DNA of 64,000 nucleotides from an uncultured Pseudomonadota bacterium (GCA_963770835.1 CAVYRH010000003.1:160001-224000); one strand, 5' to 3'. Shown: positions 1 through 51,939, numbered from the stretch's first letter. The notes: generated from the letters alone by a model not told the origin. Program-made: numbers and translations.

Positions 1-694
1 CGACAAGCCTTACCAGTGGACTGAGATGCCTTACGACTTGAACCAGTCGACTGTCGACAGTCGACTGTCGACAGCAGAACAACAGATGCAACTGCAAACA
101 GTAAGAGAGGACAAAGAAAAGCAACGGATTAAAATTGCCGCAATTGATTGCGGCATTAAATACAACATCCTGCGCCGCCTGATGGCCGAGGGGTTCGACG
201 TGACGGTTTACCCGGCGACCACCAAGGTGAAAGACCTGATGAACAAAGGGCACAAAGGAGTGTTCTTGTCCAACGGTCCGGGCGACCCGGAAGGCGTACC
301 CTATGTGGCGAAGATGGTACGGGAACTGATCGAAAAAAGTGTGCCGATTTTTGGCATCTGCCTAGGGCATCAAATCCTGGGGCTAGCCTTGGGCGGCAAG
401 ACCTACAAACTCAAGTTCGGCCACCGGGGGGCTAACCAGCCGGTGTTGAATACCCTCAACCAAAAAGTCGAAATCACCAGCCAAAACCACGGATTCTGCG
501 TAGAGACGGAAAGCCTGAATAAGGATGAAGTGATCCCGACCCATATCAACTTGAGCGACAACACTTCCGAGGGCATGGCCATGAAGAAAAAGCCGGTTTA
601 TAGCGTGCAGTACCACCCCGAGGCTTCACCTGGCCCGCATGACTCGCGGTATCTCTTTAAACAATTCCGCGAGATGGTCGAGCGGAACGGCTAA
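1..694 (+). CDS. carA: Carbamoyl-phosphate synthase small subunit, 3' part (5' end outside window)
   Basis: Motifs SNGPGDP, PIFGICLGHQ, KFGHRGANQPV, TSQNHGF, SVQYHPEASPGPHD; upstream of carB. Confidence 0.97.
   Translation, partial: DKPYQWTEMPYDLNQSTVDSRLSTAEQQMQLQTVREDKEKQRIKIAAIDCGIKYNILRRLMAEGFDVTVYPATTKVKDLMNKGHKGVFLSNGPGDPEGVPYVAKMVRELIEKSVPIFGICLGHQILGLALGGKTYKLKFGHRGANQPVLNTLNQKVEITSQNHGFCVETESLNKDEVIPTHINLSDNTSEGMAMKKKPVYSVQYHPEASPGPHDSRYLFKQFREMVERNG
45..74. repeat. Heptamer tandem/palindromic repeat (A/T)GTCGAC x4, in frame inside carA
   Basis: agtcgac tgtcgac agtcgac tgtcgac ag, encoding STVDSRLST. Confidence 0.85.
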
Positions 695-714
695 TCGAAT
701 AAGAGGAGGCTGCC

Positions 715-1050
715 GTGGATGACGAGCAAAAGACGGTCTTTCATAGGAAAGATGGAGTGCGGCGGTACCAGGTCGAGCACATGAAGGAGCGTCTTATCCG
801 GAGGGTCCACCGCTCCCATTTGGTGCCCCTGGTCATCATTGTTTTCCTGGGTTTTTGTATGTGGAAGGGGATGGATATCCGGACCTGGCAGGTCTGGGCC
901 CCCTGCGCTGCCTTGGCGGCGGTCTATTTCTTGACCATGGCCTTGAGCGTATGTCCCCGATGCGGCCGCCGGTTCTTCGGCGGCTTGGGTTGGCTTTTCG
1001 GGTTCGCGCATAGTGTCCATTGCGGCAAATGCGGGTTCAAGTTGTTCTGA
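715..1050 (+). CDS. Small membrane protein, two TM helices plus C-terminal CxxC...CxxC zinc ribbon
   Basis: GAGGAGG RBS before GTG; hydrophobic segments; CPRC and CGKC motifs. Confidence 0.75.
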   Translation: MDDEQKTVFHRKDGVRRYQVEHMKERLIRRVHRSHLVPLVIIVFLGFCMWKGMDIRTWQVWAPCAALAAVYFLTMALSVCPRCGRRFFGGLGWLFGFAHSVHCGKCGFKLF

Positions 1051-1069
1051 TCAACGGGGGTTGTTCTAA

Positions 1070-1177
1070 ATGCCTAAACGCACTGACATCAAAAAGATCA
1101 TGGCCATCGGAGCCGGCCCGCACGATTCAAGGTATTTGTTTAAACAGTTCAGGGAGATGGTTGAAAAGAATGGTTAG
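1070..1177 (+). pseudogene. 35-aa chimeric mini-ORF: carB N-terminus fused to carA C-terminus
   Basis: Translates [35 protein letters not shown]; matches 1591-1641 and 632-694. Confidence 0.92.
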
Positions 1178-1194
1178 GAATTTAAAGATTTAGT

Positions 1195-1232
1195 CGTCAT
1201 TGCACGGAACGAATTTTGAGACGAAGCAACCC
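1195..1232. repeat. Degenerate GTCATTGC...GACGAAGCAA(T/C)CC-type intergenic repeat
   Basis: gtcattgcacggaacgaattttgagacgaagcaaccc resembles a widespread REP-like repeat; single degenerate copy here. Confidence 0.4.
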
Positions 1233-1281
1233 AAGTTCATGGGTGGTTTATGTCAAAGAGATTAGTTTGAAATGGGTCTTC

Positions 1282-1578
1282 ATGGATAAGAAATATAAAG
1301 AGTTTTTCAAAATGATGAAATTCACGAATTGGTTGATTTTGGTCTTAACCATTGGATTGATTCCTTTTTTGTTATTAATGTCCCATATCCCTTGGTTCTA
1401 TTTAAGAAACGGATCGATTTTTTCTTACATATTTTTTTGGTGGGGATCCGGATTCTTTCGTGGTTCGGTTAGGTGCCCACGCTGCCGAAAAATGTTTTGT
1501 GTCAAATCTTTAGGCGTTCTTAATTTTGGAAATCCTTTTAGTGGTGAATGCTTGAATTGTGGTCTGAAAAACAAATGA
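1282..1578 (+). CDS. Small membrane protein, two TM helices plus C-terminal zinc ribbon; AT-rich counterpart of 715-1050
   Basis: CPRC...CLNCG motifs; same architecture as 715-1050; start uncertain. Confidence 0.7.
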   Translation: MDKKYKEFFKMMKFTNWLILVLTIGLIPFLLLMSHIPWFYLRNGSIFSYIFFWWGSGFFRGSVRCPRCRKMFCVKSLGVLNFGNPFSGECLNCGLKNK

Positions 1579-1590
1579 AAATGGGAAAAC

Positions 1591-4500
1591 ATGCCCAAAC
1601 GGACTGACATCAAAAAGATCATGGTCATCGGGGCCGGGCCCATCATCATCGGGCAGGCCTGCGAGTTCGACTATTCGGGCACCCAGGGCTGCAAGGCCCT
1701 GAAGGAAGAGGGCTACGAGGTCATCCTCATCAACTCCAACCCCGCCACCATCATGACCGACCCGGAATTCGCCCACCGCACCTATGTGGAACCCATCACC
1801 CCCGAAGTTTGCCGCAAAATCATTGAAAAAGAACGTCCGGACGCCCTTTTGCCGACCCTGGGGGGCCAGACGGCCCTCAATACCGCCGTGGCCCTGGCCG
1901 AGAACGGCACCTTGAACGAATTCAAGGTGGAACTTATCGGCGCAAATCTAGCCGCCATCAAGAAGGCCGAAGACCGCCAGCTTTTCAAGGAAGCCATGAT
2001 CAAGATCGGCCTGGACCTTCCTGATTCCCTAACCGTGAAGACCCTTGAAGAGGGGATTGGCTTCGCCGAAACCAACGGGTATCCCGTCATTATCCGGCCC
2101 GCCTTTACCTTGGGCGGCACGGGCGGCGGCATCGCCTATAACCGCCAGGAATTTGAGGAAATCCTCTCCAAGGGCATCGACCTGTCACCTATCCACCAAT
2201 GCCTGGTGGAGCAATCGGTCATGGGCTGGAAGGAATTCGAGATGGAGGTCATGCGCGACCTCAAGGACAACGTGGTCATCATCTGCTCCATCGAGAACAT
2301 GGACCCCATGGGTATCCACACCGGGGATTCGGTGACGGTGGCCCCGGCCCAAACCCTCACCGACAAGGAATACCAGCGCATGCGGGACGCCTCCATCGCC
2401 TGCATCCGGGAGATCGGCGTGGATACGGGCGGCTCCAATATCCAGTTCGGCGTGGACCCCAAGACGGGCCGTATGGTCATCATCGAGATGAACCCCCGGG
2501 TGTCCCGCTCCTCGGCCCTGGCTTCCAAGGCCACGGGGTTCCCCATCGCCAAGATCGCGGCCAAACTGGCTGTCGGCTACAGCCTGGACGAGATCTTCAA
2601 CGACATCACCCGCTACACCAAGGCGGCCTTCGAGCCCACCATCGATTACGTGGTCACCAAGATCCCCCGTTTCACCTTCGAGAAATTCCCCGACGCCGAG
2701 GACATCCTGAACACCTCCATGAAGAGCGTGGGCGAGACCATGTCCATCGGTCGCACCTTCAAGGAAAGCTACCAGAAGGCCCTGCGGTCCATGGAAACTG
2801 GCACCATCGGCCTGGGCGCCGACGGGCGGGAATGGAAGGAAGGCCGCTGGCAGAGGACCGGCGTCCGCAAGCCCCGGGGCTTGTCCCACGACGTCCTTGA
2901 CGCCCAGTTGCGCAAGCCCACCTCGCAACGGCATTTCTTCGTGCGCCAGGCCCTTTGGCAGAACTATGACGGTGGACAAGCTTTACAAGCTCTCGGCCAT
3001 CGACCCCTGGTTCCTGAATGAGATGAAGGAGATCGTGGACCTGGAGAAGGAACTGGAAAAATCAACCGCCAAGCGCGGCAAATTGAGGACCAAACTGCCC
3101 GACGACCTTTTGCGGCGGGCCAAGGCTTACGGCTTTTCCGACCCCCAACTGGCCTTCCTTTGCGGGGTCAAGGAAACGGACATCCGCAAGTACCGTAAGA
3201 TGCGGGGCGTAAAACCCGTTTACAAGATGGTGGACACTTGCGCCGCCGAGTTCGAGGCCTTCACGCCTTATCTATATTCCACTTATGAATTGGGCCGGTC
3301 CTCCTTCGCGGGGAAGGATGTGGAAGCCGGGCCGACCAAAGAAAACAAGATCATGATCCTGGGCGGCGGGCCCAACCGCATCGGGCAGGGCATCGAGTTC
3401 GACTATTGCTGCGTGCACGGGGCTTTCGCGCTTCAAGGCCGACGGGTATGAAGTCATCATGGTGAACAACAATCCCGAAACCGTCTCCACCGATTACGAC
3501 ACGTCCAACCGCCTTTATTTCGAGCCCCTGACCTTTGAGGATGTCATGAACATCCTGGACCGGGAAAATCCCAAGGGGGTCATCGTGCAGTTCGGGGGCC
3601 AGACACCCCTGAAATTGGCGGTTTCCCTGAAAAAGGCGGGGGCGCCCATCATCGGCACCTCGCCCGAATCCATCGACGTGGCCGAGGACCGCAAACTCTT
3701 CGGGGCCATGTTGAGGCGCCTGAAGATCCGCCAGCCGGACAACGGCATCGCCATGAACGTCAAGCAGGCCAAGCCCGTGGCCCGTAAGGTGGGTTATCCG
3801 GTGGTGGTCCGCCCTTCCTACGTCCTGGGCGGCCGGGCCATGGAGATCGTCTATGACGAGGAATCCCTGGACGAGTTCGTGGTCAAGGCGGCGGAAGCGG
3901 CCCCGGACAAGCCCATTCTGATCGACCATTTCCTGGAGGACGCCATTGAAGTGGACGTGGACTGCGTCTGCGACGGGAAGGAAGTGCTAGTTGCGGGCAT
4001 CATGGAGCATATCGAGGAAGCGGGCATCCATTCGGGCGATTCGGCCTGCGTGATTCCGCCCTATACCCTACGGGAAGACCAGATCAACACCATCCGCAAG
4101 TACACCAAGGAAATGGCCCTGAGCCCTCAAGGTGAAGGGCCTGATGAACGTCCAATACGCCATAAAGAACGACCTCGTGTATGTGCTGGAAGTGAACCCC
4201 CGGGCCTCCCGCACCGTGCCTTTCGTCTCCAAGGCCACGGGCACACCCTGGGCCAAGGTGGCGGCCCGGCTCATGGCGGGGAAGACCATCGCTGGCTTGA
4301 AGGTCAAGGAAGTTTCCTACCTCAAGCATATTGCCGTGAAGGAATCGGTATTTCCCTTCAACCGATTCCCGGGCGTGGACACGGTCCTGGGGCCGGAAAT
4401 GAAATCCACGGGCGAAGTCATGGGTATCGACAACGATTTCGGCATGGCCTTCTCCAAGAGCCAGATGGCGGCCAACTCTTCCCTACCCCTCAAGGGCACG

Positions 4501-4897
4501 GTTTTCGTATCCGTGAAAAACAAGGACAAGCGGTCAGTGATTTTTATCGCCAAACGCCTGAGCGACATGGGGTTCAAACTGGTGGCCACCCAGGGAACGG
4601 CCCAGGCCCTTACCAGCAATGGCCTGGAGGTGACGGTGGTGCGCAAGGTGCATGAGGGGCGGCCCAACGTGGTGGACCTCATCAAGAACGGCGGGCATCC
4701 AGCTCATCATGAACACTCCGGCGGGGAAGGGCCCCAGGTCGGACGACTTCCAAATCCGCCGCACGGCGGTGGTCTATAACGTTCCTTGTATCACCACGCT
4801 CTCGGCCTGCGCGGCCGCCGCCAACGGTATCGAGGCCTTGAAGAAACGCGAAATCAAGGTGAAGTCACTGCAGGCCCATTTTTCAAATGAAATATAG
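1591..4897 (+). CDS. carB: Carbamoyl-phosphate synthase large subunit, split by four frameshifts (~2960, ~3435, ~4125, ~4695)
   Basis: [73 protein letters not shown] and an MGS domain, spread over five ORF pieces. Confidence 0.96.
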
Positions 4898-5579: not shown

Positions 5580-5665
5580 AAGAATTTCCCCGTAAGCAAT
5601 TTACTTTATAACTGTGGTCTTTTGCCCCTACCTTCCGGCACCGCCTTCCCTTAAAATTGTTTCCC

Positions 5666-11808: not shown

Positions 11809-12100
11809 AAAAATCGCCTTGTAGTTCTACGGATGGCAAATTCCCCGCCTTTTCCTCCGGAACAAAGCGGGGAGCCTCTGGTTTGTCCGGGTGCCGGGAA
11901 TTGGCCAAGTAAAAAGGCTGAACAGATTTTAGATTTTCTGACGGTTTACCGGTCCTTTCCCCCCTCCTTGGTTTACCGTTGAAGCGACTATCCCCCTTTA
12001 ATTTCATACCTTTTCATAGTTGGCTTCAAAAATGCATTTTAGAATTCCGCTTTGCCATTCGGTGCGGTTTTATCTACTAGGTCAAAATTCGGGGGTCGAT

Positions 12101-13717
12101 ATGAATTCAAGAACGATTTGGTCTGCGGCGTTAGGGTTGATCCTAGCTGGTGGCACCATGGTCGGATGTATCAGGCCTGTGGGAACACCGACGGTGCCCA
12201 TCCCTCCGGCCACCAATACCCCGACCACGGTCCCCGCCGGCCCCTGTACCAATGCCTACGGCTTAACCTGCACCTACACCCCGAACCTGACGGTGAGCCC
12301 ATCATCCACCTCCACCCGGACTCCCACCCCGGTTCCCTCCGCTACCGCCCCGCTTTCCGCGACGAGTACGTTCGTGCCGCCCACGGCCAGCTTCACCCCG
12401 TCCCCCACCGTGACCCATACGCCTGTCCCCCCCACGGCATCAGCCACCGCATCCTCCTCCGCCACGGCTACGGCCGATCCGTCGGTCCCGCCGACTTCCA
12501 CCCCGACTGCGACCGCCACCCGGACCATCGTTTCCACTTCCACGGTCACCTTCGTGCCGACGGCCACTTACACCCCGGTTTCCGGATGCGTCACGATGGG
12601 GACCCACGACCCTTCGCCGGTGATAACGATCGCGGTTGAACCGAATTATTACCTGGCCCGGGCCTATCCTGCCGGAACCATCTGCGGGACGGGCTTCAAT
12701 AATTTCCAAGCCTTCGTCGGGAACTTTGACTCGATTCCCGATAACCTGGAAGTGTCGGTTTATGACAACGGCACCCGGGTGGCGGACACCGTGCTGACGA
12801 TTCCCGCCTCGAGCCAAGGCTGGGTCTCGGCGCCCCTTCCCGCCTTTACCATCCCCTGTGGGGACCAGGTGGTACTGGTGGCCCATAGCCAGGGGCCGAC
12901 AATTTTCCTAGGGGCCGCCTATGGAACGGCAAATTGTGACAGCGAAGTGAAACCCCTGTCCGGTACTATGCCCTCCAGTTATCCCGATCCGGCCTTTCTC
13001 ACCTCGGGTGGTTCCTCCGGCTGGTGCTATGAGATGAGCCTGGATTCCTGCGCGTCGGGAACACCCGCCACCCCGACCCCCACTGGGACGGCAACTGCGG
13101 TTCCCTCTGCCACGCCCACGACCACCCCGCACATGACGCCCACGATCTCCGTCCCTGGCAGCGGCATTTTTTGGGGTCCGGCGGAAATTGGTTCTTTTCC
13201 AGGCGTCACAGGGTGGCTTTCCTTAGCCGTTAACGGAAGCCCGGAGTCGACAGCGGGAGTCACCCTGACCACCCCCTCTGGCAACGTGCCTTTTACTTAT
13301 TCCGGCGTCAATGGTTCCATGGCGGCCTACTCTCCCGCCTCTTCCTTCACCTATATACCCGGCGGCACCTATACCATGACGACGGTCACTTCTATAGGAA
13401 CCGCTACGGCCTCGTTGGTGGCCCCCGGGCCTGTTTCCATCGCTCCGGACGGATCCCAGGCCTCGTGGACCTACGAGGGGAATGAGGATTACGTCACGGT
13501 CCAGGAACTGTTTTCACCCTATAACTTCACGCTTCAGACCTACAACCTGACGTCGGATGTGGATTCGCCCTATTCCATACCCGCTTCGGCCTACCCCGCT
13601 TCGGGCAATTATTCCGTTTTTCCCGTGGCCCAAAGCTCGACTTATAACGTGACGAATGCTGCTGCGGGCTCGCGATTCACGGTCACCTGTTGGAATTCCC
13701 TCGACGTTATGAAATAA
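12101..13717 (+). CDS. Putative lipoprotein with Thr/Pro-rich linkers
   Basis: Hydrophobic leader ending MVGC; long T/P/S stretches between globular parts. Confidence 0.7.
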   Translation: MNSRTIWSAALGLILAGGTMVGCIRPVGTPTVPIPPATNTPTTVPAGPCTNAYGLTCTYTPNLTVSPSSTSTRTPTPVPSATAPLSATSTFVPPTASFTPSPTVTHTPVPPTASATASSSATATADPSVPPTSTPTATATRTIVSTSTVTFVPTATYTPVSGCVTMGTHDPSPVITIAVEPNYYLARAYPAGTICGTGFNNFQAFVGNFDSIPDNLEVSVYDNGTRVADTVLTIPASSQGWVSAPLPAFTIPCGDQVVLVAHSQGPTIFLGAAYGTANCDSEVKPLSGTMPSSYPDPAFLTSGGSSGWCYEMSLDSCASGTPATPTPTGTATAVPSATPTTTPHMTPTISVPGSGIFWGPAEIGSFPGVTGWLSLAVNGSPESTAGVTLTTPSGNVPFTYSGVNGSMAAYSPASSFTYIPGGTYTMTTVTSIGTATASLVAPGPVSIAPDGSQASWTYEGNEDYVTVQELFSPYNFTLQTYNLTSDVDSPYSIPASAYPASGNYSVFPVAQSSTYNVTNAAAGSRFTVTCWNSLDVMK

Positions 13718-13733
13718 AATTCTGGTGATAGAG

Positions 13734-13764
13734 GCCGCCCTTTCCATGAAAGGGCGGCTTTTTT
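13734..13764 (+). terminator. Intrinsic terminator
   Basis: gccgccctttc cat gaaagggcggc followed by T6. Confidence 0.85.
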
Positions 13765-13859
13765 GTTTTTGGGCAAGAAGGTGGAATGGGCGGGACATCG
13801 AGGGCCCAGACCGGCAAGGACAAGTCGATTTTTTGCCTGATTTTAAAGATAATCATCCG

Positions 13860-14528
13860 ATGCCAAACTTATCCGCCGATAAAGTTTTTCTCAAAACTAA
13901 CGAAATCTACCTGAGCCTCCAGGGCGAATCCACCTGGGCAGGGCTGCCCTGCGTCTTCGTGCGCCTGACCGGCTGTTCCCTCCGCTGTTCCTGGTGTGAT
14001 ACGGCCTATGCCTTCTATCAGGGAAAAGACGAAGGTTTGGAGGAAGTGCTGAAGAAGGTGGATTCTTTCGGCGTAAAGCTGGTGGAGATCACCGGTGGGG
14101 AACCGCTGGAGCAGGAAGGGGTTTACCCGTTGATGGAAGCCCTCCTTCAAAAGGGCTACAAGGTTCTCCTGGAAACCAGCGGGGCGGTGGACCTGGGCCG
14201 GGTCCCCCGGGCCGTGGTGAAGATCATGGATGTCAAATGTCCAGGATCCGGGGAAGATGCCCGGAACCTGTGGAGTAATTTGGATAAGCTGGTCCCGGGA
14301 CTGGACGAGATCAAGTTTGTCATCCAGGACAGGGCGGATTACGATTACGCCAAGGAAGTCTTGGACCGGCACCGATTACCGGGGATGTACACTCTGCTGT
14401 TTTCTGCTTCCCATGAGACTTTAGAACCCGCCCGCCTGGCCGAATGGATCACGGCGGACCGCCTTCCGGTGAGGATGCAGCTTCAGATGCACAAGTACAT
14501 TTGGCCAAACGAAACAAAAGGCCGATAA
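13860..14528 (+). CDS. queE: 7-carboxy-7-deazaguanine synthase (radical SAM)
   Basis: EIYLSLQGE, FVRLTGCSLRCSWCDT, ITGGEP, LQMHKYIW; next to queC. Confidence 0.92.
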   Translation: MPNLSADKVFLKTNEIYLSLQGESTWAGLPCVFVRLTGCSLRCSWCDTAYAFYQGKDEGLEEVLKKVDSFGVKLVEITGGEPLEQEGVYPLMEALLQKGYKVLLETSGAVDLGRVPRAVVKIMDVKCPGSGEDARNLWSNLDKLVPGLDEIKFVIQDRADYDYAKEVLDRHRLPGMYTLLFSASHETLEPARLAEWITADRLPVRMQLQMHKYIWPNETKGR

Positions 14529-14530
14529 GC

Positions 14531-14627
14531 AGTCGACAGTCGGCAGGTGACAGTCGACGGTTACTCCCTCAATTTGTTATCCGTGGTTTTGCTGTCGACC
14601 GTCGACTGTGAACTGTTAACTAGTGAC
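14531..14627. repeat. Inverted pair of heptamer tandem arrays
   Basis: agtcgac agtcggc aggtgac agtcgac ... gtcgacc gtcgact gtgaact gttaact. Confidence 0.8.
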
Positions 14628-14655
14628 GAATTGGTGAATTGGGGAGAAACGGTAA

Positions 14656-15342
14656 ATGAAACGTCGCAAAGCCATTGTCCTAGTGTCGGGAGGTTTAGAT
14701 TCGACCACTTGTTTGGCCATCGCTAAGAAACAAGGTTATGAACTTTACGCCCTGACCCTTTTTTACGGCCAACGGCACAAGGTGGAGCTCCAAGCCGCCC
14801 GGAAAGTGGCCAAGGTTTACGGGGTCAAAAAACACCTGGAATTGGAAGTGCCCCTTACCGCCATCGGAGGATCGGCCCTCACCGATAAAAAGATTAAAGT
14901 TCCAAAACAAAGAAGCCTTAAAGAGATGGAGAAGGGAATTCCCCCCACCTATGTCCCGGCCCGCAATACGGTTTTTCTTTCGCTAGCTTTGGCCTGGGCG
15001 GAAGTCCTAGGGGCGGAAAACATCTTTATTGGGGTGAACGCCCTGGACTACAGCGGCTATCCCGACTGCCGGCCGGAGTTCATCCGGGCTTACGAACGCC
15101 TCGCGAAACTGGCCACCCAAAAAGGGGTGGAAGGGAAATGGAAACTCAAAATTCATACACCGCTTATCCGCATGAGCAAAGCCCAAATCATTCGAACGGG
15201 TTTGAAATTGGGCGTGGATTACGGGATGACCTGGTCCTGTTACGACCCAACCCCATCGGGGAAACCCTGCGGCCGGTGCGATTCCTGCCTTCTTCGGGAG
15301 AAAGGATTCAGGGAAGTTGGCTGTGAAAATCAAAACGGTTAA
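14656..15342 (+). CDS. queC: 7-cyano-7-deazaguanine synthase
   Basis: [42 protein letters not shown]. Confidence 0.96.
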
Positions 15343-15496
15343 TTAAGGTTAATTATTAGTAAATAATATTTTTTCTTTCGCTTTTTTGGGGTTTTCAGAG
15401 AGTTCTATTTCATCGTAAAAACTAAACGAAGTAGTAGAATTGGGGCCTGTCTTTAAACTTTGTTATTTTGAAACATATCAACTGGAACGGTATTCA

Positions 15497-18400
15497 ATGA
15501 TTCGGAACGCCAAAAAGTCTAGCCCTCTCTTGTTTATGGCCTTTCTTCTTGTTTCCATCGCTTGGGATAATACTTTTGCTTTCTCCTCCAATGAGTCCGC
15601 TTTTCTGGAGTGGGGTCAAAAATACTTCACCGCCGGATATCCCAATGGCCAGAACGCGGATCAGAACACCGTCTATAATCCGGAGGGTGTTTTTTACGAC
15701 GGGGCTCACTTCTTTGTTGCGGACAAATTAAACAACAGGGTTTTGATTTTTAACTCTATTCCGTCGGGAACGGATGCAAACGCGGATGTGGTTATTGGCC
15801 AAACCGATTTTGGCTCGAATTGCGCCAATCAATCCGGCCCTGTTGCCGCGAATACTTTGAACAATCCATCCGGAATCTACAGTAACGGTACGACACTTCT
15901 CGTCGCCGATACCGGGAACAACCGCGTTTTAGTTTTTTACCAAATACCCACTTCCAATAATGCCTCGGCTGACCTCGTCATCGGCCAGCCGGATATGGTG
16001 AGCAATAAATACAACCAGGGAACTTCCCCTCCTGCCGCCAATACACTGGGGGGGCCTTACAATGTTTTTAGTTCCGGCTCGAGCATAGTGATCTCGGATT
16101 GGGCCAACAACCGGATTTTGATCTTCAATAGTTTCCCCACGTCAAACAACGCATTTGCAGATGTCGTGGTCGGACAGTCCGGTTTCGGCGGCTACTTGTC
16201 CAATCAAGGGGGGGGGATTGGGGCTAATACGCTCAATCAACCTTATTACGCCTTTACGGTGGGCAATAAGCTTTTGATTTCCGATTCGGGAAACAGCCGC
16301 GTTCTTATCTTCAACAACGTACCGTCGTCCAACAACGCCTCGGCCGATTTGGTGCTGGGGCAAAGCAGTTTTTCAGGCAACCTGGCCAATGAAGCCGGGA
16401 ATCCCGGCGCCAACACCCTTTATTTTCCGGAAGGCCTATATAGCGATGGAACCAAGCTATTCGTTGCGGATACCTCGAACCAAAGGGTCCTTGTTTTTAA
16501 CAACATTCCATCCGTTACAAATGCTTCCGCGGATCTGGTGATCGGCCAATCCTTCTTTAATAATAATTCCCCGAACCAGGCTGGAAGTCCAGGCGCTAAT
16601 ACTCTCGAAGCCCCCTATGGGATTTGTGGGAATGGAACGTTCGTCGCAATTTCAGATCAGAACAATCAAAGGGTTCTTCTTTATAATAACGAACCTGTTG
16701 CTAACAATACGTTTGCGGATGCGGTGGTAGGACAAATTGGATTCACCCAGACCAGTTTCAACCAGGGGCCGGTAACAACCGCTTCCAATTATCAACAACC
16801 CCAAGGGGCCTATTCGGACGGGACAAGACTTTTTGTTGCGGATTCGGCCAATAACAGAGTTTTAATCTATAACAGAATTCCAACCTCCAGCGGTGTTCCT
16901 GCGGATGTGGTTATCGGCCAACCGGATTTTGTTTCCAACAAAGCCAACCAGGGTAGCGCAGTAGGCCCGAACACACTCAACTTCCCTTATAAGGTTTACA
17001 GCGATGGAAGCCGGCTTTATATCGCAGATACTAATAATAACCGTGTACTTGTTTACAACTCATTCCCCACCACGAACAACGCCTCGGCTGACATGGTGAT
17101 CGGTCAATCCGGCCTGTCAGCCAACTCGCCTAACCAGGGGGGCTCTATTGGACCGAATACCTTGGCCCAACCTTGGGACGTCAAGGGGGATGGTACCCAT
17201 TTGGTCATCACCGACCGTGGGAACGGCCGCATCCTGATTTACAACAGTACTCCCGTCACCAGCAACGCCCCCGCCAACGTGGCGGTGGGAGCGGCCAACC
17301 TCACCAGCGGGGGCGGGGGCTCGGGAGCCAACCGTTTCAGCAATTTGGGAGATGCTTTTAGCGACGGAACCCACCTTTTCGCGGCGGATCAGAATAATAA
17401 CCGGGTTCTTATTTTCAACAGCCTGCCTGTGACCAACAATGCATCGGCGGATGTTGTGGTGGGCCAGGCCAGCTTTACCGGAACCCAAGGTAACCAGGGG
17501 GGCGGCGTTAGTGCCCAAGCCCTTGCCATTCCCGCCGGGGTCTATTCCGATGGGACGAGGCTATTTATCGCCGATGAATACAATAATCGTGTCCTTGTTT
17601 ATTCCAGCATTCCCGTTACCAACAATACTCCGGCGAATTACGTTTTGGGACAACCCAATTTCACTAGCGACAACTATAACGAAGGCGGGTGTTCTGTGGC
17701 CTTCAGCCTTTACCATCCATGGGATGTACAGGCGCAATCGGGCGGTCTTTTTGTGGCGGACCAAAACAACAGCCGGGTTCTTTACTTCCAAGATAACGCG
17801 ACCCCCGTTCCCACATTTACTTTTACCTATACTCCCACCGGGTCGCTTACCTATACTCCCACCTTAACGCCCACCTTTACTCCCACGGCGACTGTAACTT
17901 CGACCCCGTCCAACAGCCCTACTTCCACTCCAACAAACAGTACCACGACGACCTCCACTTGGACTTCGACACCCGTCTTAAGCTTTACTCCCACCAGTTC
18001 CCCTACCCCCTCCATGACACCGGCGCCCACCAACACCCTGGTCCCAGTTGCCTGCTCCTCCGATAATACCTCGGGCCTTGCGTCGTCAGGATCGGTAACC
18101 CTTAATCCCTCAAACGATTTTGTCCCTCTGTGCAATGGGTGGGTGGCCTATGGGGACCGGACGAACAACCAAATCGTCATCATCAACGTCGCGACAGGGG
18201 CCGTGAACCAATATTTCCAACTACCCGGGCCACCCGGCCGGATCGGCTTTGATTCTTCCCATTCCCGCTTGTTTGCCACTGTGGACAACATGAACGTGCT
18301 GGCGAAGGTCGATCTGAACACCGAACAAGCCAGCTTGATCAACATTAACGGGCAGGCCATGTTCTTGGCGATTGGAAACGGAGGATTGGTGTTTGTGGAT

Positions 18401-33947: not shown

Positions 33948-34193
33948 ATGAAAACTTCGACCATCAACCTATCCATACCCAGGGATCTCCTGGAAAAAGC
34001 GGACCGGGAAGCGAAGAAGGAATCCCGGAGCCGGTCCGAATTGATGCGCGAGGCCCTGCGGGCCTACATCGAGAGGCAAGCCCGATGGGAAAGAATCACC
34101 ACTTACTCCGACGCCCAGGTTGAGAAGATGGGCCTTGCCCCCGGGGATGTCGAAGCGATCATCCAGGAGGACCGGAAAGCGCGGCAACGGTGA
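33948..34193 (+). CDS. Ribbon-helix-helix (CopG-type) antitoxin
   Basis: INLSIP..LL...D..A.....SRSELMREALR; overlaps the PIN gene. Confidence 0.85.
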   Translation: MKTSTINLSIPRDLLEKADREAKKESRSRSELMREALRAYIERQARWERITTYSDAQVEKMGLAPGDVEAIIQEDRKARQR

Positions 34194-34708: not shown

Positions 34709-34808
34709 GATGATTTGCCCAAATCAAAACCTTCTTCAAACCCGCCATTGGCGTTTCGGCTGGTTTTGATAAAATAATCACAGGCAACGAGGTCCGAAAG
34801 GAAAAACC

Positions 34809-35060
34809 ATGAGCGTCCAAGTTTCTATTTCAATGCCCGATTCGGCCTTTTCGGCCCTTAAGCGGAGCCCAAAGGAATTCGCCAAGGAAATGCGGCTTGC
34901 CGCGGCGGTGAAATGGTACGAAGCCGGCATGGTTTCGCAGGCCAAGGCGGCGGAACTGGCCGGTCTGAACCGCGCGGGATTCCTTCAGTCCCTGGACAGG
35001 TTCAAAGTCACCCCGTTCCAATATGACGCAGGCGACCTCGAACGTGAAATGAATGAATAG
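34809..35060 (+). CDS. UPF0175-family putative antitoxin
   Basis: RLAAAVKWYE.G.VSQAKAAELAGL.R..FL. Confidence 0.82.
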   Translation: MSVQVSISMPDSAFSALKRSPKEFAKEMRLAAAVKWYEAGMVSQAKAAELAGLNRAGFLQSLDRFKVTPFQYDAGDLEREMNE

Positions 35061-35652
35061 GAGCTGGGTTTTCGACAGCTCCGCCCTCATCGCCCTCGGT
35101 AAAATCGACCGGTTGGACTTGATCACGGGGCTCCCTGGTGTCTTCCACGTCCCGCACGCAGTCAAGAAGGAAATCCTCTCTAGAAAACCACCGGACCCGG
35201 CCTCCCTCTGGCCGCTCGATAAAAACTGTCCCGCCCGGGTGGTTCGTACGCCCTTGGACAGGGCTGTGTTGTCATGGGATCTTGGGGCTGGGGAATCGGA
35301 AACGATTTGCCATTGCTTGAGGCACCGTGGTTGCGTGGCGGTCTTGGACGACCGAATGGGAAGGCGTTGTGCCAAGGCGATGGGTGTCCAGGTCAAAGGG
35401 ACGGTTGGACTTCTTTTATGGCTCAAAGAGCAAGGAAAACTCGATAAAATTAAACCGGTTTTGGGTTCGCTTTCAAAGTCAGGTTTTCACCTTGATCCCG
35501 CCGTATTTAAATTGGCCCCGAAACTAGCTGGCGAGCATGAAAGCGGATTAGGCGGGGAATATTCCCTTACCGCCCATGAAGCTCCCGCCGTATATAAGAC
35601 CACCACATCAAAAAAGCCCAAAACCAGGCGTCCTCAACGGAAACGCAAATAG
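35053..35652 (+). CDS. DUF3368-type PIN protein with C-terminal extension
   Basis: VFDSSALIAL, DLGAGESE, LDDR.GRR.A..MG..V.GTVGLL. Confidence 0.82.
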   Translation: MNRSWVFDSSALIALGKIDRLDLITGLPGVFHVPHAVKKEILSRKPPDPASLWPLDKNCPARVVRTPLDRAVLSWDLGAGESETICHCLRHRGCVAVLDDRMGRRCAKAMGVQVKGTVGLLLWLKEQGKLDKIKPVLGSLSKSGFHLDPAVFKLAPKLAGEHESGLGGEYSLTAHEAPAVYKTTTSKKPKTRRPQRKRK

Positions 35653-35659
35653 GTCCCGG

Positions 35660-35700
35660 TTGGACCAAACTTGACCAACTTGACCAAGTCCAGGTAAAAT
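35660..35700 (+). promoter_or_regulatory. Promoter/operator of the phd-vapC module
   Basis: Tandem TTG(G)ACCAA x3; TTGACC-18-TAAAAT. Confidence 0.6.
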
Positions 35701-35706
35701 AAGCTC

Positions 35707-35982
35707 ATGAAAAATAAATACTCCATTTACGAGGCCAAGACCCACCTCAGCGAGATTCTCCGCCAGGTCAAGAACAACCGGGAGATCGTCATTACTGACC
35801 GGGGCAAGGAAGTGGCGCGGGTGGTTCCCGCCGTGGATTCAACCAACTTTGAGAAACGCATCGAAGCCCTGAAACGGGCAGGCATTATCACTCCTGCCAC
35901 CGGCCGCCCCTCAGAGATCAAGCCCATCGCCCATATTCCCGGAGCCTTGAAGCGCTTCCTGGAAACCCGGAATCGCTTTTGA
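35707..35982 (+). CDS. Phd/YefM-family antitoxin
   Basis: SIYEAKTHLSEILRQV...EIVITDRGKEVARVVP. Confidence 0.9.
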   Translation: MKNKYSIYEAKTHLSEILRQVKNNREIVITDRGKEVARVVPAVDSTNFEKRIEALKRAGIITPATGRPSEIKPIAHIPGALKRFLETRNRF

Positions 35983-36476
35983 AATCAGCGTTCTTTGACA
36001 CTTCAGCCTTAGCCGCTGTCCTTTTCAACGAGCCCTCTTCCCCCGCGGTCCAAAATATCCTGGAAGATATCGAAACAGTCCGTGCCTCAAGCCTCCTGGA
36101 AGCGGAAATCCGGAGTGCGGCGGCGAGGGAGGCCCTTGACCAGCGGGAAGTGGACGTTGTTCTTTCCAAGGTGGAATGGGTCCTGCCGGACCGCCCCCTT
36201 TCCCAGGAACTGCGGGTTGTAGCCTCATGTGGGATCCATTTGAGGGGCGCCGATGCCTGGCACCTGGCCTGCGCCCTCTACCTGGCGGGTGACCCGGCGA
36301 ACCTTCCTTTTGTGACCCTTGACGGGGACCAAGCCAAAGTGGCCAGCCACCTCGGCTTTAAGGCGCTCCCGGGGGGATTGCCACAGGGATCGGGAGTTCA
36401 CGAGCCCCCAATGCCGTATGGCGCCGGGGGTAGGAAGGCCAAGGGAAGCCGCGCGAAGAGGGTAAAAGCACATTGA
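35979..36476 (+). CDS. vapC: VapC-type PIN toxin with C-terminal extension
   Basis: FFDTSAL, E.RS, LRGADAWHLACA, FVTLD. Confidence 0.85.
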   Translation: MKSAFFDTSALAAVLFNEPSSPAVQNILEDIETVRASSLLEAEIRSAAAREALDQREVDVVLSKVEWVLPDRPLSQELRVVASCGIHLRGADAWHLACALYLAGDPANLPFVTLDGDQAKVASHLGFKALPGGLPQGSGVHEPPMPYGAGGRKAKGSRAKRVKAH

Positions 36477-36594
36477 ACCATGTCGTAATAACAGCGGTCA
36501 TTGAGAGGAATAAGCCCTAGAGGGGCTTGTTTATGACGAAGCAAACTCACGTTTCTAAGCTTTTTGGGGATGTTTGGGGAGGTAGTGAGGCAGG

Positions 36595-36980
36595 CTATTC
36601 TTCCAATTTTTATGCAATTTGCATAAAAATTGGAAGAATAGAGACCAAATCACCGGTTGAATTGTCCTCATTGGGGACAATTCAAATAAGGGAATTTGGG
36701 GGTAGGCTGTTTATTCTTCCAATTTTTACGGATAGTCCGTAAAAATTGGAAGAATAGCCGGAAACAAAAGTCTAAAAAATCGGCCAAATTGGGGGGGAGC
36801 GTAAATTATTTACGCTTGGGGCATGAAATAGGGGTTTTGACGTTTCGGGGTGTCCGTCGGACGGACACTCAAAATAAGGGTTTTATGAAGATTTGAAGAA
36901 CGCCTTATTTTTGGTGTTTCCCGGGGAAACACTTTGGGGTCCGAGTTTTTAGGAATCTTAAAAAAATTGGAAGAATAGCC
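36595..36980. repeat. Cluster of five perfect short-loop palindromes with five copies of AAAAATTGGAAGAATA
   Basis: 36595-36641 (23-bp arms), 36657-36685, 36712-36756 (21-bp arms), 36850-36868, 36914-36932; half site at ~36962-36978. Confidence 0.85.
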
Positions 36981-37000: not shown

Positions 37001-37471
37001 ATGGCTCAAAATCCGTTAGGGGGGTTCCTCAAGGGCCTGTTTGGCCGTCAAACACCCAACCCCGCTGCCCAGGCCCCCGTACAGGCCCCTATGCCGAGGC
37101 CTCAAGCCGAGGCACAAGCCTTGGGTGTATCGGAGCAGGTTCGGGGCTCCGATGCCCCGGTCACAGCCCAACCCACTCCTCTAAGCCCCCAGCGCTCCCC
37201 AGCCACCCCGACCACCGAAGCCTACATGACCCGGAAGAAGGGCCGGAAGCTCCATAGAGATAGTTACGCGGACGCCAAAAGGCTCTACGAGAGCATCCAA
37301 CGCCGGGGGGAGGCTACCCCCGGGGACCTGGCCCAGGAGTTCGGCATGGCCCGGAGCTCCCTGGCCTATAACCTCAACCGGCTGGTGGCCAAGAAGTACG
37401 TTGAACGCCTCGGCGGCGGGCGGAGCATCCGGTACAAGGTAACGGGTGTTCCTTTGGGCAGGATCAATTGA
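37001..37471 (+). CDS. Winged helix-turn-helix protein with Pro/Gln-rich N-terminus
   Basis: ATPGDLAQEFGMARSSLAYNLNRLV..KYVERLGGGRSIRY. Confidence 0.75.
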   Translation: MAQNPLGGFLKGLFGRQTPNPAAQAPVQAPMPRPQAEAQALGVSEQVRGSDAPVTAQPTPLSPQRSPATPTTEAYMTRKKGRKLHRDSYADAKRLYESIQRRGEATPGDLAQEFGMARSSLAYNLNRLVAKKYVERLGGGRSIRYKVTGVPLGRIN

Positions 37472-37522: not shown

Positions 37523-37762
37523 ATGGAACACCGACACTTTAAATACGACCGCATTACTTTCGACCCCGATAAATGCTTTGGGAAACCCTGCATCCGTGGT
37601 TATCGCATGCCGGTAGCAACGTTACTGGGTTATATGGCCGGCGGAATGACCATTCCGGAAATCCTGAAGGAATGGCCGGAACTTGAGAAAGACGACATTC
37701 TCCAAGCCCTCGCCTATGCCTCGTTGGAGGCTGAGGAGCGGTTCATCCCGGCCCGCCCTTGA
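37523..37762 (+). CDS. DUF433-family putative antitoxin
   Basis: RITFDPDKCFGKPCIRG.RMPV, G.TIPEIL..WP.LE..DI..ALAYA. Confidence 0.9.
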   Translation: MEHRHFKYDRITFDPDKCFGKPCIRGYRMPVATLLGYMAGGMTIPEILKEWPELEKDDILQALAYASLEAEERFIPARP

Positions 37763-38328
37763 AGTTTATCCTGGACGTCAACCTTCCGCCCTCGCTTTGC
37801 CAACGGCTGGCCCGGCATAGCCACGAGGCATTCCATGCGGGGAAATTAGGATTATGGAAAGCCACCGACGAAACCGTCTTATCCTTGGCGGAATCACAGG
37901 GCGCGGTCCTTTTGACCCATGATCTTGGTTTTGGCAAATTACTGGCCTTTTCCCAAAAGGAAAAACCCTCTGTCGTAATTTTCCGCCTTGAAAAACTGAA
38001 TTCTGAAATTTTGGAGGGAATTTTATTAAAAGATTGGGGCTTGATCGAAAGGCCTGTCTTGCTGGGAGCCATTGTAGTGATCGAGGAGAATGACGTTCGA
38101 ATCCGGCGGCTTCCCATCGGAGGAACGGGCCTTGAAGGGCTTCCTGAAGTCCATGAAGCGCCCGCCGCTTACAAGGCGGGCCCTTCGAGAAAGCCCGCTG
38201 ACCCGAGGCCCTCAAGCCGAGGGGTGAGCCTTGCGCGTGCCGGGCCGGGGGACGGAGTTGACGACGTCCCACAAAGGGCCTGGCCCAAAGCCGGGCGTTC
38301 CAAGCCGAAACCTAAGAAGCGGAAATAA
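37759..38328 (+). CDS. DUF5615-type PIN-like toxin with long C-terminal extension
   Basis: MKFILDVNLP, ATDETV, LLTHDLGFG, PSVVIFRL, VRIRRLPI. Confidence 0.85.
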   Translation: MKFILDVNLPPSLCQRLARHSHEAFHAGKLGLWKATDETVLSLAESQGAVLLTHDLGFGKLLAFSQKEKPSVVIFRLEKLNSEILEGILLKDWGLIERPVLLGAIVVIEENDVRIRRLPIGGTGLEGLPEVHEAPAAYKAGPSRKPADPRPSSRGVSLARAGPGDGVDDVPQRAWPKAGRSKPKPKKRK

Positions 38329-38423
38329 GGAAAAAGGTCCTCGCTGAATGAACTGTTTTCAAAAGACTCATCACTCCTCACTTCGCACTCATAACTCAGG
38401 GGCCAAGAACTTGGCCACTGGAA

Positions 38424-38533
38424 TGGCCTATAACCTCAACCGGCTGGTGGCCAAAAAGTACATTGAACGGATCGGTGGGGGCCGGAGTATCCGGTACAAG
38501 GTAACGGGTGTTCCCTTGGGCAGGATTAATTGA
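38424..38533 (+). pseudogene. Second copy of the last 110 nt of the wHTH gene (37362-37471)
   Basis: 10 mismatches in 110 nt, 8 synonymous; its stop overlaps the TTG start of the next gene. Confidence 0.92.
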
Positions 38534-49662: not shown

Positions 49663-51210
49663 TTGAACCCAAAATTGCTGGTCCTCTATCAATATTACTC
49701 ACCCGATGATGTTGTCAGTGCGGTTCATTTCACTGATTTGTGTGAGGGACTTTCCAAGAGTGGTTTTGCCGAACCCAATCTTGGTGCCTCCGCAAGCTCC
49801 GGCACCTCGGTTCGGCACACACAAAGCCCTCTCCTCGGCTTGAGGGTCTCGGAGAAGTGGGAAGTCGAGGTCTGGCCCAGCAACCGGGCCTGCCACGATC
49901 TAAAAGCCACCTATACCACCAAGCCGGAAACGGTGAACGGAGTGACCATCCGCCGGGTTTGGAGGCCGCCTTTCTCCCAGCATTCCTTCCTGGGCCGGAT
50001 CCTCAATTCCATCTGGATGCTGAAACGCTGGTGGTGGCGGCTTCTTTTATCACCCTCCATCCAACCGGACGTGATCCTGACGGGCACCGACCCGCTGTTT
50101 ACCATAATCCTCATCCCTTTCCTGAAAATGATCCGCCCCAAGGCCAAGATCGTCCACTGGTGCTTCGACCTCTATCCCGAGGCCGCCATCGCCGACGGCA
50201 TGCTGAAGGAAAACGGCCCCGTGGTGAAGCTCGCGAGGCCTTTCCTGGAAAAAGGCTACGCGAAATGCGATTTGGTGGCCGACCTGGGGCCTTGCATGAG
50301 GGAAAAGTTAAAAAAATATGGAATTGAAACACCTAAGGCTGAAGCACCCTCACCCCAACCCTCTCCCCTTAAGGGAGAGGGGGGAGCCGATTCAACCGAA
50401 TACCAAAAGGCCTCCCCGCTGCATCTTCTCGGTGAAAAACGAGTTGTGACCCTGACTCCCTGGGCCTTGGAGGAACCCTCTGCTCCTCTGCCAATCGACC
50501 TGGTAGAAAGGGAAGCCCTTTTTGGGGCCGAGCCCATGGGTGATGCCTCCGCAAGCTCCGGCATCTCGGCTCGGCCCACCTCACCCATCGGGCTTACGCC
50601 CGAGGGCGACAAAAATCGTCGGAGCTCGCCCCGAGGCTCGAGGGCCTCGGGGCAGGGGAAATTTCAATTAGCCCTGCTTTATTCCGGCAACCTGGGCCGG
50701 GCCCACGACTTTTACCTCAATTTGAAGCTGGCCCAACGGATGCGCGATTCCGCGGGGTTCACCTACAGCGTGCGGGGCAGCCGGGTGGACGCCTTGAAGC
50801 TGGCGGTGAACCCGGAATATACCAATATCCGTTTCGCGCCCTTCGCCCCGCCGGAGCGCCTGGCCGCGCGGCTGGCCGCGCCCGACGTGCACGTGGTGAG
50901 CCTTCGCCCCGAGTGGACGGGCACGGTGGTGCCCTCCAAATTCTTCGGGGCCCTGGCCGTGGGCCGGCCCGTGCTTTTCGAGGGCGACGAGCATTCCTCC
51001 ATCGCCCTCTGGATCAAGGAATATGGGGTGGGCTGGGTTTTGGGCGTCAGGAACATGGAGGATGTCGCGGAGGAACTGGAGAAGTTCTCCAAGGACGCCA
51101 AGAAGAAGGCGGAGATGTTCAAGCGGTGCCATCAAACCTACCAGGCCCATTTCTCAAAGGCCACGATTCTTTCCAAATGGGAGGCTGAATTGAGGGCATT
51201 GCTGCCCTGA
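49663..51210 (+). CDS. Glycosyltransferase family 4 (WbuB/WcaI-like) with three in-frame repeat insertions
   Basis: QYYSPD, DLYPE, LYSGNLGRAH, VPSKFFGALAVGRPV. Confidence 0.85.
   Translation: MNPKLLVLYQYYSPDDVVSAVHFTDLCEGLSKSGFAEPNLGASASSGTSVRHTQSPLLGLRVSEKWEVEVWPSNRACHDLKATYTTKPETVNGVTIRRVWRPPFSQHSFLGRILNSIWMLKRWWWRLLLSPSIQPDVILTGTDPLFTIILIPFLKMIRPKAKIVHWCFDLYPEAAIADGMLKENGPVVKLARPFLEKGYAKCDLVADLGPCMREKLKKYGIETPKAEAPSPQPSPLKGEGGADSTEYQKASPLHLLGEKRVVTLTPWALEEPSAPLPIDLVEREALFGAEPMGDASASSGISARPTSPIGLTPEGDKNRRSSPRGSRASGQGKFQLALLYSGNLGRAHDFYLNLKLAQRMRDSAGFTYSVRGSRVDALKLAVNPEYTNIRFAPFAPPERLAARLAAPDVHVVSLRPEWTGTVVPSKFFGALAVGRPVLFEGDEHSSIALWIKEYGVGWVLGVRNMEDVAEELEKFSKDAKKKAEMFKRCHQTYQAHFSKATILSKWEAELRALLP
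49768..49853. repeat. In-frame palindromic insertion 1 in the GT4
   Basis: gccgaacc..ggtgcc-tccgcaagctcc-ggcacc-tc-ggttcggc, then cctcggcttgagggtctcgg. Confidence 0.8.
50345..50382. repeat. In-frame REP-like unit in the GT4 (PSPQPSPLKGEG)
   Basis: caccctcaccccaaccctctccccttaagggagaggg. Confidence 0.8.
50527..50653. repeat. In-frame palindromic insertion 3 in the GT4
   Basis: gccgagcc..gatgcc-tccgcaagctcc-ggcatc-tc-ggctcggc plus hairpins tcgggc-ttac-gcccga and gccccgaggc..gcctcggggc. Confidence 0.8.
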
Positions 51211-51291
51211 TCCAGCTTGTGTCCATAGTGGCCTTCGGGCCTGGCACACCCAAACCGCGTGTCTCGCCTTGTGGGCTCGACACAGGGGTAC

Positions 51292-51360
51292 CAAGCCCAT
51301 TTTTCAAGAGCCGCTGTGATCTCCCATTGGGATGAAGAACTTCGAGCCCTCTTGTCTTAA
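51292..51360 (+). pseudogene. Alternative GT4 C-terminus, copy 2
   Basis: QAHFSRAAVISHWDEELRALLS* versus QAHFSKATILSKWEAELRALLP* at 51142-51210. Confidence 0.85.
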
Positions 51361-51527
51361 TAACACGCGGGGACTAGCTGCGGCTCCCGGGCTTGGTACA
51401 CCCAAGGCTCGCGCCTCGGCTTGCATTCGTCCCTGCTGGGACGATTGCGACCAATTCTTGCACCTCGCCTTGTGGGCTCGGTGCAGGACGGGCTACTACC
51501 GCTCTTCGAGGCTACGGCGCAGGGGAC

Positions 51528-51596
51528 CAGGCTCATTTCTCCAAAAAAATCGTCCTCGACGCCTGGGACCGGGAACTGCGATCCCTCCTGGCTTAA
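51528..51596 (+). pseudogene. Alternative GT4 C-terminus, copy 3
   Basis: QAHFSKKIVLDAWDRELRSLLA*, same 69-nt length. Confidence 0.85.
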
Positions 51597-51601
51597 TCCA
51601 A

Positions 51602-51633
51602 TTGTTCCCAAAATGGTAACATTAGGGTAGAAT
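51602..51633 (+). promoter_or_regulatory. higBA promoter with imperfect palindromic operator
   Basis: TGTTCCC-aaaat-GGTAACA followed by TAGAAT. Confidence 0.55.
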
Positions 51634-51639
51634 CCAACC

Positions 51640-51939
51640 ATGAGGGTCATCAGCCTGAGGGGCTTAAAAAAATTCTGGGAAAGTCCTGAGGGCAAGGAAT
51701 CGGAAAGCCCTTTGCGGGTATGGATCAAGGAAGCCCGGGGGGCCCATTGGAAAGGGCCGCACGACGTTAAGGCCCAATATCGAACAGCTAGCATCTTAAA
51801 AAGTGGCCGGGTTGTATTTAATGTTGGTGGGAATAAATTCAGGTTGGTGACGGTTGTGTTTTACGACGTTCAAATCGTGTTTATCCGATTTATAGGAACG
51901 CACACCCAATACGATCAAATAGACGCGCAGGAGGTTTGA
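51640..51939 (+). CDS. higB: HigB-family mRNase toxin
   Basis: MRVIS, W..P.DVK, RVVFNVGGNKFRL, IRFIGTH.QYD. Confidence 0.92.
   Translation: MRVISLRGLKKFWESPEGKESESPLRVWIKEARGAHWKGPHDVKAQYRTASILKSGRVVFNVGGNKFRLVTVVFYDVQIVFIRFIGTHTQYDQIDAQEV

Follow-up and report, generated by a model that had tools for sequence, protein, structure and literature searches.

Displaced gene ends behind intact housekeeping genes of an uncultured soil bacterium and its relatives: probable scars of insertion with duplication

In the stretch of DNA analysed here (hereafter the window; 64,000 nucleotides, contig C3:160001-224000 of genome G000), the last codons of three genes recur downstream of the same gene, with small additional genes between or behind the copies, and the question was raised of how a gene end can be repeated with its stop codon in place and how the additional genes came there. 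G000 is a metagenome-derived assembly (96% complete, 3.65% contamination) and was compared with relatives from the candidate division FCPU426, whose MetH proteins are 84–97% identical. The initial annotation had placed tail duplications at carA, a winged-helix (wHTH) gene and a GT4 glycosyltransferase gene, and had proposed that incoming DNA brings its own 3′ end of the resident gene (the anchor) plus cargo and pushes the old end downstream. All three duplications are genuine and lie at the coordinates given there, save that the first GT4 copy begins 3 nt earlier, at 51289. The analysis revealed that the displaced tails are real, recurrent and measurable, and that small extra genes have probably been placed behind housekeeping genes repeatedly by DNA bringing fresh last codons, in this uncultured soil bacterium and in its relatives.

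The carA–carB locus contains the following features:

1–694, plus strand: 3′ part of carA (carbamoyl-phosphate synthase small chain; gene call g2567), the anchor, which starts before the window; GATase PF00117, E = 2e-52.
632–694, plus strand: working carA tail, of the allele that accompanies cargo 1; over 54 nt it shares 94% identity with the tails of G004 and L259, which are likewise linked to cargo 1.
715–1050, plus strand: cargo 1, a small membrane protein with CxxC..CxxC and no assigned family; homologues lie right behind a carA end in G002, G004 and L259–L262.
1070–1114, plus strand: orphan carB start of 15 codons; 1070–1119 is 90% identical to 1591–1640.
1115–1177, plus strand: displaced carA tail, beginning in frame at a GGCCC microhomology; 83–87% like the working tails of G020, G010, G021, G007 and G017.
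1192–1240, plus strand: remnant of a dispersed REP-like repeat; 15 blastn matches in the genome, itself included.
1282–1578, plus strand: cargo 2, an AT-rich membrane protein with CxxC..CxxC, its ORF open from 1216; the genes that relatives have at this position are 23–32% identical to it.
1591–4897, plus strand: carB, in several frames (probable assembly indels); an X1 contig is one base shorter at 2968.

The two carA tails are the same at 47 of 63 nt and differ in one of 20 residues, and the stop codon is retained. The start of carB is duplicated too, which the initial annotation had overlooked; it continues in frame into the displaced end of carA, giving an ORF of 35 codons, and the locus therefore consists, in order, of tail A and cargo 1, the carB start joined to tail B, and then cargo 2 and carB. 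The carB/carA joint is alone in having a known donor side, and its GGCCC is common to carB (at GAGP) and carA (at PGPH). L262 shows the unstacked arrangement carA–cargo 1–carB, which is the simple donor state, and one microhomology joint is needed to yield the window locus from it. In four sequencing runs searched over window positions 1–3000, that is at the carA locus, contigs with no difference cross the carB/carA joint in two studies (X1 of study P1, spanning 1065–1680, and X2 of study P2, spanning 954–1181), X1 or another run possibly being the source sample; the joint of carA with cargo 1 is crossed by contigs with no difference in X2 and X3. The small genes of this locus had been described as Zn-ribbon membrane genes, and they do possess hydrophobic stretches and CxxC...CxxC, but no Pfam or NCBIfam family was assigned to them, and an atlas search with cargo 1 returned unnamed clusters only.

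Tail and cargo move jointly, as had been supposed. While the working carA tail is close to those of the cargo 1 carriers G004 and L259, the adjoining G004 windows reach 55–85%, and cargo 1 is 88–93% identical among five sources against 23–32% for the next gene. The cargo-1 tail and the joint are held in common by G004, L259 and L260, whose downstream genes differ. Cargo 1 stands first in G000, G004 and L259–L262 and last in G002, behind two orphan tails and two other cargo blocks, a position from which an order in time might be read. Among the relatives compared, carA joints lie mostly at GPH, a joint used by two different donor ends. A short carA remnant was also seen by eye in G015.

The wHTH locus contains four features:

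37001–37471, plus strand: winged-helix (MarR-like) gene, the anchor, with its working tail at 37362–37471; PF12802, E = 6e-8.
37523–38328, plus strand: cargo, a toxin–antitoxin-type pair of DUF433 (37523–37762) and DUF5615 (37759–38328), by Pfam.
38365–38423, plus strand: short tandem-repeat tract and small hairpin ahead of the joint; a like tract precedes the G002 joint.
38424–38533, plus strand: displaced wHTH tail, whose stop overlaps the start of the next gene, an AT-rich methyltransferase.

Here 100 of 110 nt are the same, with two residue changes and the stop retained. In G002 the slot holds a different pair, resembling by eye the UPF0175/DUF3368 genes of the window, and in spite of this different cargo the two joints lie within 3 nt of each other.

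The GT4 locus is stacked:

49663–51210, plus strand: WcaI-like GT4 glycosyltransferase gene, the anchor, with its working tail at 51139–51210.
51243–51288, plus strand: palindromic dispersed repeat that ends in CAGGGG directly against the first orphan; the genome has 19 scored copies.
51289–51360, plus strand: displaced GT4 tail 1; 95.5% identical over 89 nt to the end of the working GT4 gene of G002 and its flank.
51388–51524, plus strand: second, longer palindromic repeat tract.
51525–51596, plus strand: displaced GT4 tail 2, presumably the oldest.
51640–52314, plus strand: higB (51640–51939; PF09907, E = 4e-28) and a higA-like gene (51943–52314; weak HTH_3 match), behind the last tail.

The working tail (51142–51210) shares 43 of 69 nt with 51292–51360 and 39 of 69 with 51528–51596, each with the stop retained. 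Although the GT4 bodies of G000 and its congener G002 are 73.6% identical, the first orphan with its flank matches the working end of G002 far more closely; together with the carA tail, this bears out the claim that the copies are former functional alleles. The element also stands ahead of the orphan in G024, G021 and, more diverged, G043. As for the proposed cargo, DUF433 and DUF5615 were confirmed and HigB exceeds its Pfam cut-off, whereas HigA is a weak HTH_3 match, and higBA does lie behind the last GT4 copy but not between copies.

Beyond the window, an excess of such events was found genome-wide. A blastn search of 3115 genes against unannotated DNA recovered copies of a gene's own tail downstream for 19 genes, upstream for three and in far controls (same-strand windows 20–25 kb away) for none, the polarity of 19 vs 3 having a binomial p of 0.0009. 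The 19 downstream cases include one whole paralogue, one ORF of low complexity and one toxin tail; upstream, orphan gene starts were found for three genes, carB included. A stop-anchored peptide scan within 5 kb (about 3000 genes) gave 21 downstream and six upstream matches, several of the latter being a dispersed repeat, a stack member or of low score, with one and two matches in far windows. Under a strict uniform scan, 11 downstream cases stood against one upstream among 2926 anchors; three of the 11 lie in the window (p = 0.0006, the window having been chosen for them), and two lie in a polysaccharide cluster.

The curated set comprises 29 pairs at 23 anchors, among them carA, metH, nrdJ, leuA, comM, lpdA, an asnB-like gene, a DEAD helicase, a P-type ATPase and PTS IID, and the displaced 3′ fragments, which start 24–396 nt (median 83) before the stop, sit behind intact, restored anchor genes. 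Displaced tails are stacked three deep at metH and two deep at GT4, nrdJ, leuA, g664, g4324 and, in G002, carA. The cargo, 0.1–4 kb in size, is often toxin–antitoxin-like when read by eye. Pooled divergence is mostly synonymous (pS 0.377, pN 0.094, pN/pS 0.25), part of the low ratio being ascertainment because many pairs were found through peptide likeness; the pairs at g1024, g1428 and g3555 may be decayed paralogues.

In the FCPU426 relatives the pattern recurs at all seven anchors examined, which had been picked since G000 has tails there. With G000 counted, own-tail copies within 1.5 kb were obtained for metH (7/26), nrdJ (4/24), leuA (2/27), comM (8/28), carA (3/19), GT4 (3/18) and wHTH (2/9); further copies turned up in protein-level searches, of carA in G011 and of GT4 in G043 and G019. 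Cargo at the anchors varies between relatives, as had been anticipated. The idea that G000 is exceptional was not supported: against its 11/2926 in the strict scan stand 4/1060 in 400-kb samples of four relatives (G004 1/267, G014 1/235, G006 0/269 and G029 2/289), G029 belonging to another family and one of its two cases also matching upstream and being repeat-like. Orphans of metH were present at 6 of 24 FCPU426-like loci and none of 15 others (p = 0.065, with the anchor pre-selected and the controls related), and across the phylum no nrdJ orphan was found outside the family among the few homologues. The comM orphans are joined 48–51 nt before the stop, after a conserved hairpin spacer, and this joint and spacer are common to eight genomes across genera. 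Six of the eight comM orphans are nearest to the working tail of their own genome among 22 tails, while the own tail ranks first for one of five metH, none of three GT4 and one of two nrdJ orphans.

The junctions themselves vary. A shared junction motif had been considered, and none was found at 30 junctions, where the commonest first dinucleotide occurs five times. The position differs within metH (48–135 nt), nrdJ (78–132 nt) and leuA (48–157 nt), and is fixed at comM (48–51 nt in eight genomes), GT4 (72 nt) and wHTH (two genomes with different cargo). Dispersed repeats occur at 3 of 30 junctions and 100 of 600 controls, giving no excess, and junction flanks fold more stably than controls that were not GC-matched (−9.1 vs −6.7 kcal/mol). 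Two further candidates were discarded. The lower GC3 of the tails as a mark of foreign origin is uninformative, because tails lie below gene bodies with or without cargo, and a target duplication gave no signal (15.3% mismatches over the first half of the copied segment vs 16.9%). The statement that the window holds no integrase or transposase was upheld, since the 12 tyrosine recombinases, one resolvase and 11 Y1 transposases of the genome (two of the last longer and divergent) all lie outside it, and no transposase emerged when 50 ORF queries, a subset of the ORFs in the window, were scanned against Pfam. No tyrosine recombinase, resolvase or Y1 transposase was found within 10 kb of the 23 curated anchors, the genome-wide scan having covered these classes and not DDE transposases, and no Rfam family was detected in the window and five anchor loci. 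ComEC and DprA exceed their cut-offs and a ComM-family gene is also present, though presence is no proof of transformation.

Variable joints, the lack of a motif, the lack of a nearby recombinase and the presence of ComEC and DprA point to host recombination with one homologous side. The evidence covers architecture, polarity, linkage of allele and cargo, variable junctions and the absence of a nearby recombinase, and the tails are probably scars of insertion with duplication by the host's own recombination, with most likely no dedicated enzyme or integrase behind them. In a first, rare step, foreign DNA with an anchor allele and downstream cargo would pair with the anchor and its free end would be joined within the anchor's last 25–400 nt, either because the fragment circularises and then enters by a single crossover, or by an illegitimate joint inside the gene of the type of homology-facilitated illegitimate recombination (HFIR); the present data do not separate the two routes. 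The anchor would remain whole, now ending in the new tail, and its former tail would lie behind the cargo. Events that leave no whole gene would then be purged, so that cases at 3′ ends prevail over the few mirror cases at gene starts. In a third step the orphan tail would serve as a second homology arm for plain double-crossover recombination, by which the same cargo and junction could land ahead of the recipient's own downstream genes, repeated rounds building stacks. The order of these events is read from position.

The second-arm role would explain common junctions ahead of different downstream genes, and it is suggested by the six of eight comM orphans with their own tail and by the joint that G004, L259 and L260 have in common while the next gene diverged. 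A unit would thereby spread together with its joint and take on the tail and downstream genes of its recipient. We tentatively propose, as a possibility rather than a probability, that displaced tails are working parts, the second arm making a portable integrase-free cassette that can enter any carrier of the anchor without deleting downstream genes, and that toxin–antitoxin pairs and even gene-less hairpin elements use it, in FCPU426 as well as in other phyla, as a general stacking route behind conserved genes. The own-tail result at comM would also follow from gene conversion, and the fixed joints at comM, GT4 and wHTH also fit site specificity, gene conversion or a hairpin-guided enzyme. 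The weak own-tail ranking at metH, GT4 and nrdJ, the use of the carA GPH joint by two donor ends and the more stable folding of junction flanks count against the preferred reading too.

The foremost alternative, which we consider unlikely, is a tandem duplication that arose locally through microhomology in a single chromosome, with one copy later altered by ordinary allele replacement or gene conversion. The carA–carB unit is indeed repeated in tandem with a microhomology at its closure, the comM unit of G011 is present in an exact tandem copy, G021 has a 276-nt repeat at 95% at its GT4 locus, and the comM copies of G002, G011 and G019 are 100% identical to the own allele. However, the two carA units hold unrelated cargo and the cargo of most units was found once; the tails have diverged synonymously (11.5 of 11.8 synonymous sites at carA), the GT4 orphan matches the working allele of another species, and two steps would be required per locus at about 20 loci.

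Somewhat less probable still is a dedicated mobilisation route, at least at comM, GT4 and lpdA, in which palindromic elements would guide the joint with a HUH/RAYT-like or other enzyme acting in trans. Such a route would account for element ends that, in several genera, meet the orphan at one fixed codon and would suit the 11 Y1 transposases, including the two longer, divergent ones, and the hairpin excess at junctions. However, in five element families only 3/19, 3/22, 0/13, 0/60 and 0/19 copies are followed by a duplicate, with a background of 14/400, and a general role of palindromic elements in producing duplications in G000 was not supported, most copies having no duplicate. For the comM element the count is two of four, one being its own locus and the other the GT4 locus on the opposite strand; 27 of the 30 junctions have no dispersed repeat, and in G002 carA and at g4324 the element lies within the orphan, the position expected of a later insertion.

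Islands that carry an integrase and target the 3′ ends of genes might have left such remnants, or integron-like cassettes might be served by an integrase in trans; either is a rather remote explanation. Prophages and islands at the 3′ end of a protein gene, such as e14 at icd, leave a restored gene and a displaced fragment but depend on an integrase and on one fixed att site; in integrons, which also need an integrase, the newest unit adjoins the anchor; and comM is an island target. The geometry of the product is equal, and 12 tyrosine recombinases and one resolvase exist in the genome, yet no integrase was found at the loci studied, and a single crossover point per gene is seen at comM, GT4 and wHTH but not at metH, nrdJ and leuA. 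No tyrosine recombinase or resolvase lies within 10 kb of the curated loci, none of 12 matches to the integron-integrase model (TIGR02249) exceeds its cut-off (best 44.6 vs 265 bits), and the 23 anchors are unrelated, with variable joints and cargo of 0.1–4 kb. The integron-like integrase in trans put forward at the outset was not supported, there being no IntI above the cut-off, no common junction motif and joints that differ within one anchor, and the loci do not form an integron. Lastly, a chimeric assembly of co-occurring strains, for which the metagenomic origin, the 3.65% contamination and the carB frameshifts might speak, is very improbable, because exact contigs from two studies bridge the carA junction, which refutes it there, and the wHTH and GT4 joints recur in independent genomes.

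Insertion with duplication by host recombination, the reading preferred here, has relatives among described systems. In the displacement of rhs C-terminal ends (Jackson et al. 2009, PMC2935791), as far as that account was drawn on, an incoming 3′ end pushes the resident one downstream without deleting it and arrays grow, the proposed route being single-crossover integration of a circle. In both, an intact gene is followed by a stack of displaced 3′ fragments; the rhs anchor is a polymorphic toxin with non-homologous tips, whereas the anchors of G000 are housekeeping or unrelated genes with a conserved tail, novelty being the cargo behind it, at about 20 loci. The tails thus work like rhs or T6SS displacement without being members, because their anchors are not polymorphic toxins. 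The T6SS effector–immunity arrays of V. cholerae (Kirchberger et al. 2017, PMC5361080) are, in the portion of the paper used, integrase-free, integron-like stacks behind a conserved anchor, ascribed to HFIR, which once finished move through ordinary recombination. They differ in being limited to T6SS clusters and in mostly losing the old effector while keeping the immunity gene, and that portion of the paper gives the orphan tail no second-arm role.

HFIR, as the sections used of Amarir-Bouhram et al. (2011, PMC3240628) describe it, takes place in competent hosts and has one homologous side and one illegitimate joint with 3–10 bp of microhomology. The initial annotation had named it as a candidate, and the fit is partial: one homologous side agrees and GGCCC stands at the carB/carA joint, but classical HFIR is described as a deletion, of about the insert size and on laboratory substrates, whereas the tails are duplications of natural divergent alleles; deletion events would leave no tail and are beyond the reach of a tail scan. 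In the same sections, a substrate with one-sided homology recircularised in E. coli, and 56 of 60 clones were single-crossover products in which the end of the homologous gene was duplicated, over 109–950 bp in the 14 clones sequenced.

Integrase-free hotspots of gene transfer, in the parts of Oliveira et al. (2017, PMC5635113) used, turn over by double recombination within the core genes on either side. Both have cargo that varies between core genes, lack a mobile element, and show flanks that have recombined and a link to transformation; the hotspot model swaps the interval and, in those parts, predicts neither displaced tails nor stacking, so the tails add duplication to it. Word searches found no paper on displaced housekeeping tails genome-wide, which is weak evidence of absence. 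Many hotspots of gene turnover have no integrase, and the addition of genes there without the loss of neighbours is an open question in the parts of that paper used (PMC5635113). If the orphan tail does act as a second arm, integron-like stacks could form by an enzyme-free route; if it does not, the tails would still serve to mark past transfer. As a trace of such additions, displaced tails are simple and can be counted: they mark the junction and preserve the older allele, any genome can be searched for them, and the strict scan counts roughly 3–4 per 1000 genes.

Duplicated units were also observed at other loci of the source genome and in its relatives. At L125:1350-5660 on contig C16, the unit comprises the tail of one gene plus the start of the next; its three copies enclose two cargo blocks, an arrangement that leaves both flanking genes whole. 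The mirror case was found at L136:1068-2177 on contig C26, where a complete addA-like gene (the name was assigned by eye) is preceded by an antitoxin-like gene and, farther upstream, by an orphan start of its own, 98 nt long. At the 3′ end of comM (loci L122 and L230-L255), eight of 28 loci carry a copy of the comM tail, 48-51 nt in length, directly behind a conserved hairpin spacer of ~87 nt that contains no gene; these copies are often identical to the allele of their own genome, and in genome G011 spacer and copy are doubled in tandem. In G029 (locus L380), which belongs to another family of the same phylum, a ferredoxin-like gene has a displaced tail of 40 residues at a distance of 965 nt downstream.

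In the window, the polysaccharide cluster harbors three toxin-antitoxin-type pairs in tandem (RHH/PIN, UPF0175/DUF3368 and Phd/PIN). A similar C-terminal tail, V.E.P..YG.. and then basic residues, is common to four unrelated toxin-type genes, two of these tails (34649-34701 and 36417-36469) having 85% DNA identity. Such a common tail could make toxin-antitoxin cargo swappable, with the joint unmoved.

33948-36476: three tandem toxin-antitoxin-type pairs
34190-34708, 35053-35652, 35979-36476, 37759-38328: genes with the V.E.P..YG.. tail
36593-36640, 36712-36759, about 36960-36980: recurring AT-rich palindromes 5′ of the wHTH gene
37086-37128, 38194-38250, 49768-49861, 50354-50383, 50527-50658: palindromic dispersed repeats inside ORFs

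The AT-rich palindromes are candidate operator sites and are partly conserved in genome G002. The palindromic dispersed repeats lie inside the wHTH, DUF5615 and GT4 ORFs, whose reading frames stay unbroken.

Elsewhere on contig C3 (64364-89999), several ORFs terminate in TCTCLSQKG-stop, the reading of a short dispersed sequence that represents either a repeat or a mobile end and was left out of the tail-copy counts. Two group II intron reverse transcriptase-like genes were recognized by eye, at L129 (contig C4, ~580300) and as g1396 (contig C2), one of them 0.5 kb past the P-type ATPase orphan tail. In the window, carB (1591-4897) is spread over several frames with breaks near 3021, 3440, 4130 and 4700, which are probably assembly indels; the base at 2968 is absent from one contig of sequencing run X1. 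The stretches 12020-26892 and 54931-59118 encode large secreted proteins that are rich in Thr and Pro, contain tandem repeats and are typical of this genome.
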